IMG/VR virus record: IMGVR_UViG_3300025128_000022
Length of the DNA: 64,000 nucleotides
Source of the DNA: an uncultured virus (IMG/VR IMGVR_UViG_3300025128_000022)
Taxonomy: Duplodnaviria; Heunggongvirae; Uroviricota; Caudoviricetes
Strand: one strand, 5' to 3'
Positions 24,340 through 62,277 of this stretch are shown piece by piece (position 1 is the first letter of the stretch; each line of letters begins with the position of its first letter). The translations under genes and the position numbers were made by a program. The notes under the pieces are model-generated. The model had not been told where the DNA came from, ran no database searches, and saw only the letters and a program-made list of their open reading frames with translations.

Positions 24340-25794
24340 ATGGCAGTATTAGCAAGTCCAACGTTTCAGTTGCAGCCAAGTGCTCAACAGGTAGCGTTGT
24401 CGTCAAACTATATTACTAATGCTCAATTTAACTTTTTGAATCAGTATCTTCCTGATACTTATGAAAAAGAGTTTGAGAGATATGGTAATAGAACTGTTTC
24501 ATCATTCTTAAGAATGGTAGGAGCAGAAATGCCTTCTAACTCTGACCTTATCAAATGGGCAGAACAAGGAAGGTTACATATTAAATATGTAAACTGTGTC
24601 TTAGGTGGTGCAGGTGCAGGTGCAGCTTCAGAAACTTTTACAGTTCCTGCAGCACAAATTGACCCTGCAAGACAACCATCAGGTTCAGTAGCACCGGCAG
24701 GTGCAGCAGGGCAAATCGGTATCAGAAAAGGTCAAACAGTAATGATTTCTGATGATACAGCAGGTTCTGCATTAAACAACAAAGGTATTGTAACAGCGGT
24801 TACAGCTACTACATTTACTGTTGCAATGTATGAAGCAGCAGGTTTAGCAGCTTACGCAGGTACAGCATCAGTTTTCATCTATGGTTCTGAATTTAAAAAA
24901 GGAACTGTTGGAATGGAAGGTGGATTAATATCTAACGACTTCATTTTTGAAAACTCTCCAATTATATTAAAAGATAAGTACCAAGTATCAGGTTCTGATA
25001 TGGCACAAATCGGTTGGATTGAAGTTCAAACAGAAGATGGAGCAAGTGGATATTTATGGTATCTTAAATCAGAACACGAAACTAGATTACGTTTCGATGA
25101 TTACTTAGAAACAGCGATGGTAGAAGCTGTACCGGCAGAAGCAGGTTCAGGTGTTGCTACTCAAGCAGTTTATGCAGATGCAGGTAACAAAGGTTCTGAA
25201 GGGGTATTCTACGTTGTAGAAGCAAGAGGTAACGTTTGGGGTGCAGGAAATCCGGCTGATTTAGCAGGATTTGATAGCATTATTCAAAGATTAGACAAGC
25301 AAGGTTCTATTGAAGAAAATGTAATTTTCGTAAACAGAGCATTCTCGTTTGACATTGATGATATGTTAGCAGCTCAAAATTCTTATGGTGCAGGTGGTTC
25401 TTCATATGGACTATTTGACAATGATGAGGAAATGGCTCTTAACTTAGGATTTACAGGATTTAGAAGAGGTTACGACTTCTATAAGTCTGAATGGAAATAC
25501 CTAAATGACCCAACAATGAGAGGTGGATTAGTAGGTGGAGCAATTAATGGACTATTAGTTCCTGCAGGTTCTACTACAGTTTATGACCAAATTTTAGGTA
25601 AAAACGCTAAGAGACCTTATTTGCATGTTAGATACAGAGCTTCAGAAGCTGAAGACAGACGTTATAAGTCTTGGATTACAGGTTCTGCAGGTGGAGCAAC
25701 AAACAAAGATTTAGATGCAATGGAAGTTAACTTCCTTTCTGAAAGATGTGTTTGTACTCTAGGTGCTAACAATTTCTTCTTATTCAAGTCATAA
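24340..25794 (+). CDS. Major capsid protein
   Basis: 484 aa; position; biased codon usage; followed by terminator. Confidence 0.8.
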   Translation: MAVLASPTFQLQPSAQQVALSSNYITNAQFNFLNQYLPDTYEKEFERYGNRTVSSFLRMVGAEMPSNSDLIKWAEQGRLHIKYVNCVLGGAGAGAASETFTVPAAQIDPARQPSGSVAPAGAAGQIGIRKGQTVMISDDTAGSALNNKGIVTAVTATTFTVAMYEAAGLAAYAGTASVFIYGSEFKKGTVGMEGGLISNDFIFENSPIILKDKYQVSGSDMAQIGWIEVQTEDGASGYLWYLKSEHETRLRFDDYLETAMVEAVPAEAGSGVATQAVYADAGNKGSEGVFYVVEARGNVWGAGNPADLAGFDSIIQRLDKQGSIEENVIFVNRAFSFDIDDMLAAQNSYGAGGSSYGLFDNDEEMALNLGFTGFRRGYDFYKSEWKYLNDPTMRGGLVGGAINGLLVPAGSTTVYDQILGKNAKRPYLHVRYRASEAEDRRYKSWITGSAGGATNKDLDAMEVNFLSERCVCTLGANNFFLFKS

Positions 25795-48222: not shown

Positions 48223-48789
48223 TTAATCGTATACTCCATTAAAAATTGTATTTAATTTTTTTTCAATAACCCCCTCAGTTTCCGGCTTTGTTCGGCTTCT
48301 TATTAAATCAAAGAGTTTTTTAAATCTCTTATCTCTGAGTTGATTAGTGTGGATTGTCTCTTTGAGACTTTGTACTTCCAAAGATAACATTTTATTTCTA
48401 TCTTCCAAAATTAAAATATGTCCTTTCAGCTCGTGAGGTTGCAACTCATCTATTCTTGGGTCTGCTATTTTGTAATATCTGACGCAGGTTTGATACTGAG
48501 AGTGGAGTTCTTTGTCGTAATCTAAAATAAAATTTATGTTTTTTAAATAATGAAGCACAGACGCATGGCTTTCTAGATTAAGATGAGATGCAATAGCGTT
48601 TACAGTAGAACCTTCGTCTCGCATGAGCTTTGCAAAAATCATTCTTCCATTTACAAAGTTTCTTTTACGAGTTTTACTTGTCAGTTTTATGTTGAAAACT
48701 TGGTTAATAATTTTTTTAAATAAATTGGCTCGTGTAGACTCTCTGTAATATGGCTTCATTTGATTTAAGTGTTTGATTTTTGGAAACAT
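48223..48789 (-). CDS. DnaA C-terminal (domain IV)-like HTH plus coiled coil
   Basis: SKTRKRNFVNGRMIF...IASHL...HASVLHY; real start may be ATG 48759. Confidence 0.65.
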   Translation of the reverse strand: MFPKIKHLNQMKPYYRESTRANLFKKIINQVFNIKLTSKTRKRNFVNGRMIFAKLMRDEGSTVNAIASHLNLESHASVLHYLKNINFILDYDKELHSQYQTCVRYYKIADPRIDELQPHELKGHILILEDRNKMLSLEVQSLKETIHTNQLRDKRFKKLFDLIRSRTKPETEGVIEKKLNTIFNGVYD

Positions 48790-59554: not shown

Positions 59555-59583
59555 TGAACACTTTGAAATCTTGTTCAGGATTT
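59555..59583 (-). ncRNA. Recurring H-type pseudoknot motif (copy A)
   Basis: AAAUC-CUGAACAA-GAUUU-CAAAG-UGUUCA; loop UGAACA pairs with UGUUCA. Confidence 0.6.
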
Positions 59584-59586
59584 TAG

Positions 59587-59705
59587 AAAGCAGACGAGGA
59601 ATCGAACCTCTATATTAATAACCTAACGTCTTGTGTCAAATTGATAAGGGAGTTATGAGTCTCCTTATCTAAAACCACTTCCGAGCACCTTGCTATCATC
59701 TGCTT
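59587..59705 (-). ncRNA. tRNA-like RNA (acceptor stem + T arm, enlarged centre)
   Basis: 5' AAGCAGA pairs with 3' UCUGCUU; GAGG-UUCGAUU-CCUC T arm; own promoter. Confidence 0.55.
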
Positions 59706-59713
59706 AACATTTG

Positions 59714-59721
59714 CAATAATA
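59714..59721 (-). promoter_or_regulatory. Bacteroidota promoter (TATTATTG, TTTG 20 nt upstream)
   Basis: One mismatch to TAnnTTTG with correctly spaced -33. Confidence 0.6.
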
Positions 59722-59763
59722 CGAATTAATAAATTAATAAACAAATTTTAGACGAACTTTTTT

Positions 59764-60477
59764 TTATTGCTCCGGTTTATAATCCGGATTTGGAGCGTTG
59801 TCAGTCGTCAAAACTTGTAGCATAATGGCATCCACAAATTGCTGTAAGATGTGTCCATACTTCTCATCAAAGCTATGGTCTTCTCTCCAATTATTTAGCC
59901 ACCTTTTAAATTCTCGTAGCATAATTGTATTGGTCATAAATCTATCCATCCAATTAAGCATATCTTGATAGTAACGAGTTACTATATACTCCTCGTGAAT
60001 GGTGCAGTTGCCACCACAATAGGAGCAGTCTTCAGCTATCTCCTCAATCTCGCCATCGTCATCTTCCTCTTCGTAATACTCCCAACCACTACCACCACAC
60101 TCACAACAATCCTGAAATACTTCCTCGATGACATTGCAATTGCCATTATTATAATAGTCGTAGTAGAATCTACTAGCAATACGAATCAGCTCTCCATTAA
60201 TGGTTTCGGCTTCAGCAGATTTTGGTACTAGTTTTTTATAAAGCTCATCATACTCTTTTTGATAAGCACCCTCATTGTTCCAATAGGTTTTTCCTAAAGG
60301 TGTTGATTTGCCGTGATGTTCAGCTGTCTTTTCCATCCATTTGCACCAATCGGCTAAAGTTTGTCGAGCATCAATTTTGCTCATACCGAATCTTTTGATT
60401 AGGTAGGGTGTCGCACCGAACATATTCGTCTCGCCGGACATCTGCAATTCGCAGAGATAATTAAAATGTGTGTTCAT
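59764..60477 (-). CDS. Early protein with CxxCxGxG zinc-finger motifs
   Basis: CCECGGSG and CSYCGGNC; N-terminal SGETNMFGA module. Confidence 0.7.
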   Translation of the reverse strand: MNTHFNYLCELQMSGETNMFGATPYLIKRFGMSKIDARQTLADWCKWMEKTAEHHGKSTPLGKTYWNNEGAYQKEYDELYKKLVPKSAEAETINGELIRIASRFYYDYYNNGNCNVIEEVFQDCCECGGSGWEYYEEEDDDGEIEEIAEDCSYCGGNCTIHEEYIVTRYYQDMLNWMDRFMTNTIMLREFKRWLNNWREDHSFDEKYGHILQQFVDAIMLQVLTTDNAPNPDYKPEQ

Positions 60478-60502
60478 AATGTTTACATTTTTATTTAATA
60501 AA

Positions 60503-60553
60503 TCCGTTTCATCCTTTCGGAATCATCAGGTGTGATACACATCACACTACGGA
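60503..60553 (-). ncRNA. Type III hammerhead ribozyme HH1
   Basis: UCC-GUA^-GUGUGA[UGUGUA]UCACAC-CUGAUGA-UUCC[GAAA]GGAU-GAAA-CGGA. Confidence 0.92.
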
Positions 60554-60576
60554 GGGGTAATGAACCCCCCTGTGTA

Positions 60577-60819
60577 TTAACTCACTCTCTCATATTCGTC
60601 AAGCCACTCATTAATGTCGTCTTCGTCTAACCAATAGTTAGTAAATTCGTTACCTTCTAAAATCAATTCTTTGGCTATGTCCATCATCCCATATTTATCA
60701 TAGAATAATTCTGAATCAGGGTCTTCAATTTCTGTCTGACCTATTTCGTGTAGCCAACCTATTTCATAACCATCATTGGTTGGTAGGTAGTCAAACACAT
60801 AGTGTTTAAGTTTTTTCAT
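60577..60819 (-). CDS. Acidic hypothetical early protein
   Basis: 80 aa; AACATTATG start. Confidence 0.7.
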   Translation of the reverse strand: MKKLKHYVFDYLPTNDGYEIGWLHEIGQTEIEDPDSELFYDKYGMMDIAKELILEGNEFTNYWLDEDDINEWLDEYERVS

Positions 60820-60843
60820 AATGTTATTATTATATTATTAAAT

Positions 60844-60892
60844 CTGTTTCATCTTTTTAGAATCATCAGCGATAGCACACACTATCGAACAG
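60844..60892 (-). ncRNA. Type III hammerhead ribozyme HH2
   Basis: CU-GUU^-CGAUAG[UGUGUG]CUAUCG-CUGAUGA-UUCU[AAAA]AGAU-GAAA-CAG. Confidence 0.88.
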
Positions 60893-60919
60893 GAGCAGTT
60901 TTAAATCGTACTCAGGATT
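60893..60919 (-). ncRNA. Recurring H-type pseudoknot motif (copy B)
   Basis: AAUC-CUGAGUAC-GAUU-UAAAAC-UGCUC; GAGUA pairs with UGCUC. Confidence 0.6.
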
Positions 60920-60931
60920 GTCTGACTGCGT

Positions 60932-61339
60932 CTACTCTATGCAGTATCCGTCATCATCGACCTTAATCTCGTGGCTGTCAGAGTGTCCGTTGACTAGCTC
61001 TGCGAGGGTTTCATTGTCGATATCATCAATCATATCATCGGTTAAAATATCGGATGAGATAGTGGTATTAAAAAGCATACCATCCTCAAACATACTTTGA
61101 ACCTCTGACATCATCTCATATTCATCGGTGAACAGCTCATCGCAAGGGTAATAAGCTCCCTTATCTGCGTCTCTTCTGTCGGTGATTATGTAGATGTCAA
61201 ATCCATCTTTTGAGGTTTCCAAAAGGATGTGAATCTCTGCTCCTGATTCATAAGGGGTTTCGATTACACTTCCAAATACATCTGTTAGGATGGACTCGAT
61301 ACCCATCTCTCTTAATTCAGTTATTGTTAATTTCTCCAT
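60932..61339 (-). CDS. Highly acidic hypothetical early protein
   Basis: 135 aa, D/E-rich. Confidence 0.7.
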   Translation of the reverse strand: MEKLTITELREMGIESILTDVFGSVIETPYESGAEIHILLETSKDGFDIYIITDRRDADKGAYYPCDELFTDEYEMMSEVQSMFEDGMLFNTTISSDILTDDMIDDIDNETLAELVNGHSDSHEIKVDDDGYCIE

Positions 61340-61340
61340 T

Positions 61341-61574
61341 TTAGTTTTTGTTTAAGTTAGACATTCTTTCTTTGTGTTCTGCGTACAATAGGGACACTAT
61401 AAGGAACGAACAAAATCCGTATAGACATACACAACCCAACCACACAATAACGCCGGTAAACGAGCCAATATCGGTTTTTAGGATGTGAATGAATAGACTC
61501 CCACATAAAGCTATTATCGGCAAACAAACTAATGCATAGATAATAGACTCTGAATAAATTAAAACTTTTTTCAT
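61341..61574 (-). CDS. Small membrane protein (2 TM)
   Basis: Two hydrophobic helices; AACATTATG start. Confidence 0.7.
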   Translation of the reverse strand: MKKVLIYSESIIYALVCLPIIALCGSLFIHILKTDIGSFTGVIVWLGCVCLYGFCSFLIVSLLYAEHKERMSNLNKN

Positions 61575-61600
61575 AATGTTATAAAGTTAAATTAATATTT

Positions 61601-61649
61601 CTGTTTCGTTCTTTTGAACTCATCAGGCAAGGCACACACCTTGCGACAG
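61601..61649 (-). ncRNA. Type III hammerhead ribozyme HH3
   Basis: CU-GUC^-GCAAGG[UGUGUG]CCUUGC-CUGAUGA-GUUC[AAAA]GAAC-GAAA-CAG; canonical core. Confidence 0.95.
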
Positions 61650-61672
61650 GGGAGCGGTCAGCTCCCTGTGGT

Positions 61673-61921
61673 CTACTTATCTTCAAGCGTTACGACTGCA
61701 TCCGGCTTTGATTTTGTCAGAACCTTGTGCATCTTGTTGAAGGTGTTCAGTTTTGAAACTACTTTCATCAATGCTCTAAACTGATTGGTATTCAGGTCTA
61801 ATTGCCCAAGCTCGATGGTCTTTAGTTGCGTAATCGTGTTGTCTAATTCATCAGCGTTGAACTCAACCTGTACCGGCTCACTATACTTGTAGCTGTTAAA
61901 ATACTTGTCATTCGTTTTCAT
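61673..61921 (-). CDS. Hypothetical early protein
   Basis: 82 aa; AACATTATG start. Confidence 0.7.
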   Translation of the reverse strand: MKTNDKYFNSYKYSEPVQVEFNADELDNTITQLKTIELGQLDLNTNQFRALMKVVSKLNTFNKMHKVLTKSKPDAVVTLEDK

Positions 61922-61950
61922 AATGTTTGTTGTTTAAGTTAGTAATATTT

Positions 61951-62175
61951 TTATCTTTCTTCGTACTCTTTAAAATCTATGCCAATAGATTCGCATAAAA
62001 ATTTCTCTTCAAACCAAAAAAGGTCGTTTATTTCGCTCTCGGTTGGTGGCTTTTCGTGATATAAATCCTCAATCGCAAATTGAATTTCTTTTAATTCATT
62101 ATAAGTAAATTCGTGTTGCTTTGCTCCGCTCCAAAATTTAAAGCTCGTTAAATCTAAATCTTTAGTGTAATACAT
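61951..62175 (-). CDS. Hypothetical early protein (MYYTKDLDL...)
   Basis: Start reassigned to ATG 62175 (AACATTATG); track start 62232 lies inside HH4. Confidence 0.7.
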   Translation of the reverse strand: MYYTKDLDLTSFKFWSGAKQHEFTYNELKEIQFAIEDLYHEKPPTESEINDLFWFEEKFLCESIGIDFKEYEER

Positions 62176-62198
62176 AATGTTTGTTATTAAATTTATAA

Positions 62199-62247
62199 TC
62201 TGTTTCTGCTTTCGCTTCTTCAGGTAAGGCACACACCTTACGACAGA
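62199..62247 (-). ncRNA. Type III hammerhead ribozyme HH4
   Basis: UCU-GUC^-GUAAGG[UGUGUG]CCUUAC-CUGAAGA-AGC[GAAA]GCA-GAAA-CAGA; short stem II. Confidence 0.82.
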
Positions 62248-62277
62248 GAACCTTTTTATCTCGACTTGTTCAGGTCG
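62248..62277 (-). ncRNA. Recurring H-type pseudoknot motif (copy C)
   Basis: CGAC-CUGAACAA-GUCG-AGAUAAAAAG-GUUC; GAAC pairs with GUUC. Confidence 0.6.

Follow-up and report, generated by a model that had tools for sequence, protein, structure and literature searches.

A small H-type pseudoknot recurring past stop codons in phage and bacterial genomes, and its possible role as the 3'-terminal structure of upstream cistrons

The window analysed here is the whole 64,000-nucleotide (nt) stretch of DNA from an uncultured virus of the Caudoviricetes (IMG/VR record IMGVR_UViG_3300025128_000022), the nearest named relatives of which are Polaribacter phages. All genes in its 58-64 kb region lie on the minus strand and encode small phage proteins of unknown function with PHROG matches only, and four type III hammerheads (HH1 to HH4) occur on that same strand. 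An earlier note on this DNA had described three copies of a recurring pseudoknot motif, hereafter the knot, two of them adjoining HH2 and HH4 on the 5' side and the third following a tRNA-like RNA; the letters, positions and paired stems of all three, as well as these neighbourhoods, were confirmed on the minus strand. The copies are set out below, with P1 denoting the hairpin stem and P2 the helix between loop and tail.

59583-59555, minus strand: knot copy 1, AAAUC-CUGAACAA-GAUUU-CAAA-GUGUUCA; P1 AAAUC (59583-59579) with GAUUU (59570-59566); loop CUGAACAA (59578-59571); linker CAAA (59565-59562); tail GUGUUCA (59561-59555); P2 UGAACA/UGUUCA, 6 base pairs (bp)
60919-60893, minus strand: knot copy 2, AAUC-CUGAGUAC-GAUU-UAAAA-CUGCUC; P1 AAUC/GAUU; P2 GAGUA/UGCUC, 5 bp including one G.U
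62277-62248, minus strand: knot copy 3, CGAC-CUGAACAA-GUCG-AGAUAAAAAG-GUUC; P1 CGAC/GUCG; P2 GAAC/GUUC, 4 bp

Each copy is a classical H-type pseudoknot of 27-30 nt, in which bases 2-7 of an 8-nt hairpin loop pair beyond an A-rich linker, with a first loop (L1) of 1-2 nt, a 1-nt junction and an A-rich third loop (L3). For working purposes, the family was defined by a P1 of 3-5 bp closing an 8-nt loop C-U-R-A-R-Y-A-N, as seen in all three window copies, by a covarying tail complementary to loop bases 2-7, which the window copies likewise possess, and by a start at least about 5 nt past a same-strand stop codon. Copy 2 starts 12 nt past the UAG stop of the open reading frame (ORF) 60932-61339 and copy 3 approximately 90 nt past its upstream stop, while copy 1 is preceded by the tRNA-like RNA rather than by an ORF.

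Sixteen CTGARYAM sites are present on the two strands of the window, of which only three are flanked by a stem of at least 3 bp, and a tail complement was found for all three of these. The full descriptor was matched three times, against a mean of 0.2 and a maximum of 2 in dinucleotide shuffles (0 of 200 reached 3); a looser descriptor accepting any CUGANNNN loop displayed no enrichment, with 7 matches observed against 5.25 and 57 of the 200 shuffles reaching 7. The earlier note had suggested a covariance model and a search of phage metagenomes. The model (R1) scored copy 2 at 39.3 bits, copy 1 at 36.5 bits (E 2e-7) and copy 3 at 24.5 bits, all three being members of its training set, and revealed no fourth knot in the window, the next best match having an E of 0.11. 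A weak model match at 46895-46863 was rejected as a knot, being an ordinary hairpin followed by a U-run.

The fold is conserved in relatives. The relative L121, which encodes a 237-amino-acid protein 76% identical to its counterpart here, carries orthologues of all three knots: that of copy 1 is identical in sequence, that of copy 2 has the loop CUGAGCAU, by which the U.G pair is converted to C-G, and that of copy 3 has the loop CUGAGCAA (GAGCA) with the tail UGCUC in place of GAAC/GUUC, a compensatory change from A-U to G-C. An alternative pairing of the copy 2 loop with UGUUCG across the hammerhead cut site was rejected as a switch because the L121 orthologue does not keep it. Scans of viral contigs for knots next to hammerheads returned 14 loci when anchored on the loop and 32 loci (25 unique sequences) when anchored on the tail; in all 25 of the latter, a loop complementary to the tail lies within an upstream covarying hairpin, with P1 taking the forms AAUC/GAUU, ACAG/CUGU, GAG/CUC, AGUC/GACU, GAAC/GUUC or GCAC/GUGU. 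As the search patterns fixed parts of each sequence, only the helix side left unfixed counts as independent evidence. In an alignment of 31 distinct sequences, with the pseudoknot structure assigned by hand, 86.5% of the cells pair as against 69.8% after shuffling (0 of 500 shuffles reach 86.5%), and pairing drops to 27-40% in a control in which the partners were slid. Changes on both sides were observed in 8 of the 11 pairs, and both helices covary. The covariation of loop with tail claimed in the earlier note, the lack of which among homologues would have spoken against it, consequently holds, and the structural reading is supported, since both the knotted fold and its covariation proved genuine and persist in relatives.

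An unbiased sample was drawn with a pattern for the commonest form that required nothing downstream, and comprised at least 136 loci and at least 135 unique copies; the counts given for it from here on are counts among the matches listed. At loop base 3 and the tail base opposite, the combination is G-C in 111 copies, A-U in 16, G.U in 7, G.A in 1 and A.C in none of the 135, and the fourth P1 pair is a standard one in 115 of the 135, with six kinds of pair represented. The subtype of copies 1 and 3 (CUGAACAA...UGUUCA, GAACA/UGUUC), referred to below as the second subtype, gave 68 unique matches, 58 of which have a P1 of at least 3 bp; P1 varies freely in this subtype, with many different sequences, and chance probably accounts for the approximately ten matches whose P1 has just 1-2 bp. 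Conservation beyond the needs of pairing was seen at loop positions C1, U2, R3, A4 and A7 and in the AAAC ahead of the tail.

The knot was found in hundreds of IMG/VR contigs, in one to four copies per phage record, and at 92 loci in bacterial metagenome-assembled genomes (MAGs) and genomes of many phyla. The named carriers are phages of Paracoccus, Polaribacter and Christensenellales hosts. In Paracoccus phage ParMal1 (OQ376858, about 25296-25327), the knot follows a stop codon and precedes the next ribosome-binding site; in Christensenellales phage NatCom_6392 (L307 1199-1383), it lies directly 5' of a DUF2800 RNA (RF02960, 123.6 bits), the first model positions of which overlap the CACCA behind the knot. 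Polaribacter phage P12002S has a doubly compensated form, CUAAACAA...CUGUUUA, at NC_028763 48430-48463 on the minus strand, which in full reads UAA, 6 nt and AAC-CUAAACAA-GUU-UUAAAA-CUGUUUA. In the short element behind it, a T-arm-like UUUAG-UUCGAUU-CUAAA is accompanied by what may be an acceptor-like stem, with no tRNA recognised by Rfam; knot and element together span L414 1385-1475 (record 48373-48463).

The knot is consequently peculiar neither to hammerheads nor to the window phage, but is a very widespread module. In agreement with the earlier note, which could assign it to no named family, Rfam 15 has no family matching the knot at E up to 10 in the window region, in 20 + 20 loci and in short stretches, and the knot ranks among the commonest small structured RNAs without an Rfam family found in viral metagenomes, spanning host phyla. 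Full-text literature searches, together with portions of PMC3088659, PMC5737381 and a 2026 preprint, gave no published description of it; the supplement of PMC5737381, with its 224 motifs, could hold something similar.

The position of the knot follows rules on its upstream side. Of 133 copies in the unbiased sample, 126 have the end of a same-strand ORF within 120 nt upstream. The distance between the stop codon and the inner three P1 pairs is 4-12 nt in 83 of these 126, with a mode of 6, and the stop is UAA in 68 of the 83; it exceeds 12 nt in 38 and falls below 4 nt in five, four of these five closest ORFs ending at a UGA or UAA inside the knot loop. In the second subtype, none of 50 copies lies below 5 nt from the stop and 33 lie at 5-14 nt. 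The hard lower bound and long tail of these distances are read as the knot standing, in genomes that are compact, as near to the stop as termination by the ribosome permits.

Downstream, the elements are more varied, with a hammerhead cleavage site, a tRNA 5' end, a U-tract or an AU-rich spacer and the next gene coming a few bases behind the knot. A hammerhead core follows in just 3 of 135 copies, the gap between knot and hammerhead being 0-4 nt in relatives, and a tRNA gene follows at 3-12 nt in 39 of the 135, tRNA-Asp in 34 of these; tRNAs upstream of the knot were found in only 2 of the 135, at 58-59 nt. About 93 of the 135 copies precede no recognised structured RNA. Runs of at least four T within 12 nt behind the knot were counted in 33 of 132 copies and in 20 of 58 of the second subtype, as compared with 11 and 1 A-runs in the same 12 nt, and with 3 and 8 T-runs in the following 12 nt; after removal of near-duplicates, 24 and 11 U-tract cases were left. 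L433 and L508 are examples of a knot with a U-tract. Some of these U-tracts sit between a knot and a tRNA, so that not all need be terminators. In the window, no U-tract stands directly behind any of the three copies. The earlier note had placed the knot at RNA processing junctions, which is too narrow as a general statement, since many copies precede just a spacer and a gene start.

In the window itself, the neighbouring RNAs are these.

62199-62247, minus strand: type III hammerhead HH4; stem III UCUGU/ACAGA; core CUGAAGA ... GAAAC; stem I GUAAGGU-GUGU-GCCUUAC; cleavage triplet GUC, cut between 62242 and 62241, after C17 at 62242
61598-61666, minus strand: hammerhead HH3 with a plain hairpin, GGGAGC-UGACC-GCUCCC (61666-61650); cut after C at 61645
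60843-60892, minus strand: type III hammerhead HH2; stem III CUGU/ACAG; core CUGAUGA ... GAAAC; cleavage triplet GUU, cut between 60888 and 60887, after U17 at 60888
60501-60570, minus strand: hammerhead HH1 with a plain hairpin, GGGG..CCCC (60570-60554); cut after A at 60548
59703-59590, minus strand: tRNA-like RNA of 114 nt; 7-bp acceptor stem GCAGAUG/CGUCUGC; T arm GAGG-UUCGAUU-CCUC

Copies 2 and 3 meet the 5' strand of stem III of HH2 and HH4 with zero gap. A scan of the whole window at the Rfam gathering threshold yielded no matches, Hammerhead_3 (RF00008, gathering 48.5 bits) included; at E up to 10, Hammerhead_3 was returned below threshold for HH3 (37.7 bits) and HH1 (28.7 bits) only, with no match for HH2 or HH4. 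On reading, HH2 and HH4 show the features of type III hammerheads, namely a CUGANGA and GAAA core, three stems, an open stem III and an NUH site. Where HH2 and HH4 have a knot, HH1 and HH3 have plain hairpins, each beginning 6 nt past a stop codon (UAA for HH1 and UAG for HH3), and that at HH3 is the hairpin equivalent of the knot. Among 51 unique hammerheads of this family, a hairpin of at least 5 bp adjoins stem III in 35, and it starts 3-13 nt past the stop (median 7) in 30 of the 33 hairpin-bearing hammerheads with an upstream ORF. A conserved hairpin, GUGUCUUCAAAGACAC, inside a longer stem was also observed directly 5' of hammerheads in unrelated viral contigs (L024, L056, L070, L071, L094, L098, L100, L112 and others) and is a second conserved type of cap alongside the knot.

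Perreault et al. (2011, PMC3088659) reported that phage and prophage hammerheads are clustered around single small genes and proposed that they cut long transcripts into gene-length mRNAs, a picture with which the four type III hammerheads of the window agree. The portions of that paper covered here mention no structure 5' of the ribozyme (PMC3088659), whereas in the present material a knot or hairpin is a regular added part, and the knot occurs without hammerheads as well.

While the conservation of the fold and the position rules are matters of observation, what the knot does has to be judged from where it stands. We would give about an even chance to the explanation that it is a substitute for a hairpin and forms the 3'-terminal structure of the upstream cistron once an RNA end has been made. 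The knot would fold a few bases past the stop codon, far enough to escape unwinding by the terminating ribosome, and the RNA would then be ended just behind it. As copies 2 and 3 run straight into stem III, hammerhead self-cleavage, presumed to take place in vivo, would give an upstream RNA that ends with the knot, 5-6 further nt and a 2',3'-cyclic phosphate; elsewhere among phages, the site of the end would be the 5' end of a tRNA, cut by RNase P, or else a U-tract or an AU-rich spacer. The knot left behind may serve as a structured tail that stops 3'-to-5' exonucleases short of the coding region, and its stacking on the short stem III may additionally aid the folding of the hammerhead. A stable fold past the stop, interchangeable with a hairpin and standing immediately before an end-maker, is seen with every kind of cargo, which makes a 3'-terminal structure the simplest account. 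Of the roles suggested in the earlier note, that of an end-protecting element fits the positional evidence best (past stops and before hammerhead cuts, tRNA 5' ends and U-tracts).

Several observations weigh against this explanation. The helices of the window copies are short and AU-rich (4-5 bp and 4-6 bp) and on paper far less stable than the GC hairpins found in that position; copy 1 follows the tRNA-like RNA, and if the latter is processed in the manner of a tRNA, the knot would come to stand at a 5' end instead of a 3' end; and many copies precede just a spacer and a ribosome-binding site, without a known cut. Loop bases U2, R3 and A4 never switch to other pairs, whereas loop bases 5 and 6 do, an invariance that hints at a sequence-specific partner or a tertiary contact. 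In around 35 Aminicenantes-type loci, an ordinary terminator stands behind the knot, and the loop UGA is the stop codon of a 20-codon ORF (12 loci aligned), which a pure end cap fails to explain. To judge from these loci, there is more to the knot than end-capping.

The Aminicenantes-type unit, free-standing and found in MAGs (L320, L336, L378, L314 and approximately 30 more), consists of a TTGAC/TAnAAT promoter, the ribosome-binding site GAAAGGAG, the 20-codon ORF, the knot and an intrinsic terminator, and each of the four genomes checked has one knot unit. The encoded peptide, MKR[YF]xVPRxAHCxxGCxxxxS, has no match in Pfam or NCBIfam. Two other interpretations of the upstream block, a cobalamin riboswitch and the tail of a long protein, were rejected: Rfam gave no match, the alignment gives a promoter, a ribosome-binding site and the 20-codon ORF, and the neighbouring genes differ.

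Among the rival explanations, the one that survives best, unlikely as we consider it, is that the knot, located at the mRNA entrance of the ribosome while the stop codon occupies the A site, acts on the terminating ribosome, either by blocking its sliding and re-initiation, such that cistrons are translated independently, or by tuning termination, with the UGA or UAA of the loop as a back-up stop. Luteovirus frameshift sites and retroviral readthrough sites are known to have compact H-type pseudoknots 6-8 nt past the decoded codon, and the sharp peak of the knot at 6-7 nt past the stop, among the matches listed, has the geometry of such stimulators. Their architecture is likewise shared, with a P1 of 4-5 bp, an L1 of 1-2 nt, a 1-nt junction and an A-rich L3 of 5-10 nt. 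Of the 31 sequences in the alignment, all except two have UGA or UAA at loop bases 2-4 (UGG in L142; the Polaribacter-type UAA is counted as a stop), and the in-loop codon is a real stop in the 12 aligned Aminicenantes-type loci and in four phage ORFs among the matches listed. The loop triplet is, however, dictated by pairing with UGCUY and is therefore not independent evidence, and plain hairpins occur at an equal distance, so that the spacing may merely be the closest position for a stable fold. Moreover, no fixed frame links the ORF stop to the loop stop, with spacers of 6, 7, 8 and 9 nt all occurring among the matches listed, and in 133 copies all three frames are closed at a median of 5-6 codons upstream, leaving nothing to recode. 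In contrast to the luteovirus and retroviral pseudoknots, the knot follows the ordinary stops of many unrelated genes with no open frame past them; a programmed frameshift or readthrough stimulator was rejected on this ground in the same 133 copies, slippery heptamers not having been searched for. For phages, it was also rejected that the upstream gene generally stops at the loop UGA, this being the case in 4 of 126 listed copies.

A second rival, which we regard as quite improbable, takes the knot as a folding helper or insulator that stacks on hammerhead stem III or shields a tRNA leader and prevents mispairing with the upstream coding sequence. The contact of P2 with a stem III of 4-5 bp would suit it, without a gap in the window and nearly so in relatives, as would the plain hairpins that hold the same place adjoining stem III, the knot directly 5' of the DUF2800 RNA in the Christensenellales phage and the knots shortly before tRNAs. 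It is at odds with the majority of listed copies (about 93 of 135) that have no recognised structured RNA behind them to be helped, with the variable gap to tRNAs, and with copy 1, which is backed by an AU-rich leader only.

A third rival, by which the knot would be specifically bound by a protein or ligand or act as a decoy for one, be it an RNA-binding regulator, a titrated nuclease or defence protein, RNA polymerase or a riboswitch ligand, is very doubtful. The conservation of the knot in loop and tail beyond pairing, its spread over phages with unrelated hosts and MAGs from several phyla, the several copies per genome, and an outline like that of the preQ1-I aptamer would fit such a role, but the unrelated genes downstream argue against a riboswitch, the knot is interchangeable with plain hairpins before hammerheads, and Rfam gives either no match to riboswitches or CRISPR repeats or one no better than chance (12-15 bits as compared with gathering thresholds of 43-48). 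With the preQ1-I aptamer (RF00522), the knot has in common a small hairpin and an A-rich tail, the end of which pairs with the loop; it differs in giving no Rfam match at E up to 10, in a 1-nt junction that leaves no pocket for a ligand, and in being tied neither to queuosine genes nor to any other gene class, with hammerheads, tRNAs and unrelated genes downstream. The small aptamer proposed in the earlier note is unlikely for the same reason, the downstream genes and elements being unrelated, while an antitermination or protein-site role is neither supported nor excluded. A CRISPR-repeat mimic (RNA anti-CRISPR) was rejected, its best matches attaining 12.2-15.5 bits against gathering thresholds of 43-48, with E values of 3.9-7.9, in stretches of 61-131 nt.

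To return to the knot as a 3'-terminal structure, known mRNA ends offer parallels. At intrinsic terminator hairpins and at the RNase III-processed ends of T7 early mRNAs, a stable fold past the stop codon ends up at the 3' end of the RNA. The knot resembles these in lying shortly past the stop, with a U-tract behind a quarter to a third of the copies; it differs in being a pseudoknot with an A-rich linker and in having its end at a ribozyme or beside a tRNA, termination by the knot being putative. At the 3' ends of MALAT1 and MEN-beta, RNase P cuts at a tRNA-like RNA and a protective triple helix is left. The proposed behaviour of the knot is alike in that an endonuclease acting on a downstream tRNA or tRNA-like fold would make the end and a compact A-rich fold would remain; the knot nevertheless is another fold, without a U-rich clamp on a 3' A-tail, and belongs to another domain of life.

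A more far-reaching version, which is offered tentatively as possible rather than probable, is that of a 'cut-and-cap' module, portable and independent of the host, which would stand in for the terminator hairpin, work with a hammerhead, with RNase P at a tRNA or with a U-tract, and resist bacterial 3'-to-5' exonucleases via an A-minor triplex. Such a module would correspond, in prokaryotes, to the MALAT1 triple helix and to viral exonuclease-resistant RNAs, and might even be a true pseudoknot-type intrinsic terminator. Ever since hammerheads were discovered in phages and bacteria, the question of what they are for has stood open, and a knot or hairpin at a fixed minimal distance past the stop and 5' of the cut would turn 'ribozymes between genes' into a defined unit that makes an end and protects it. 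Should exonuclease blocking or termination prove true, the knot would provide a sequence-defined part of 27-30 nt for stabilising or insulating synthetic operons, and its cultured carrier, Polaribacter phage P12002S, makes experiments possible.

The tRNA-like RNA of the window has CAU in its anticodon-like loop and an extra region of 33 nt, and was called neither by ARAGORN, which found no tRNA in the window, nor by Rfam. Copy 1 begins 6 nt past its 3' acceptor strand. Ahead of the RNA lies TTTG...TAnnTTG, which we take to be promoter-like, of the Bacteroidota type, and the whole spacer is 93% identical to L121, the flanking protein being only 76% identical. Right behind the knots of L220, L299 and L487 lie additional tRNA-like RNAs that have a T arm and GCCCC...GGGGCACC as their acceptor; since ARAGORN missed them, more than 39 of 135 knots probably stand ahead of an RNase P-type substrate. 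A group of viral contigs (L171, L174, L186, L193, L205, L211, L216, L227, L283, L292, L293, L296 and others) has, behind the knot, a U-run, a GC hairpin, repeats of the DnaA-box-like TTATCCACA and a T7-promoter-like ...GAGCGTCTCACTAT, an arrangement that looks like the end of a transcription unit beside an origin or promoter region.

A minor peculiarity concerns the hammerheads of the window. The first pair of hammerhead stem II is usually G-C; in three of the four hammerheads, it is non-canonical, namely U.U in HH1 (60511-60522), U.U in HH2 (60851-60862) and A.A in HH4 (62207-62216). The same stem II forms, UUCC...GGAU and AGC...GCA, recur in many other phage contigs.

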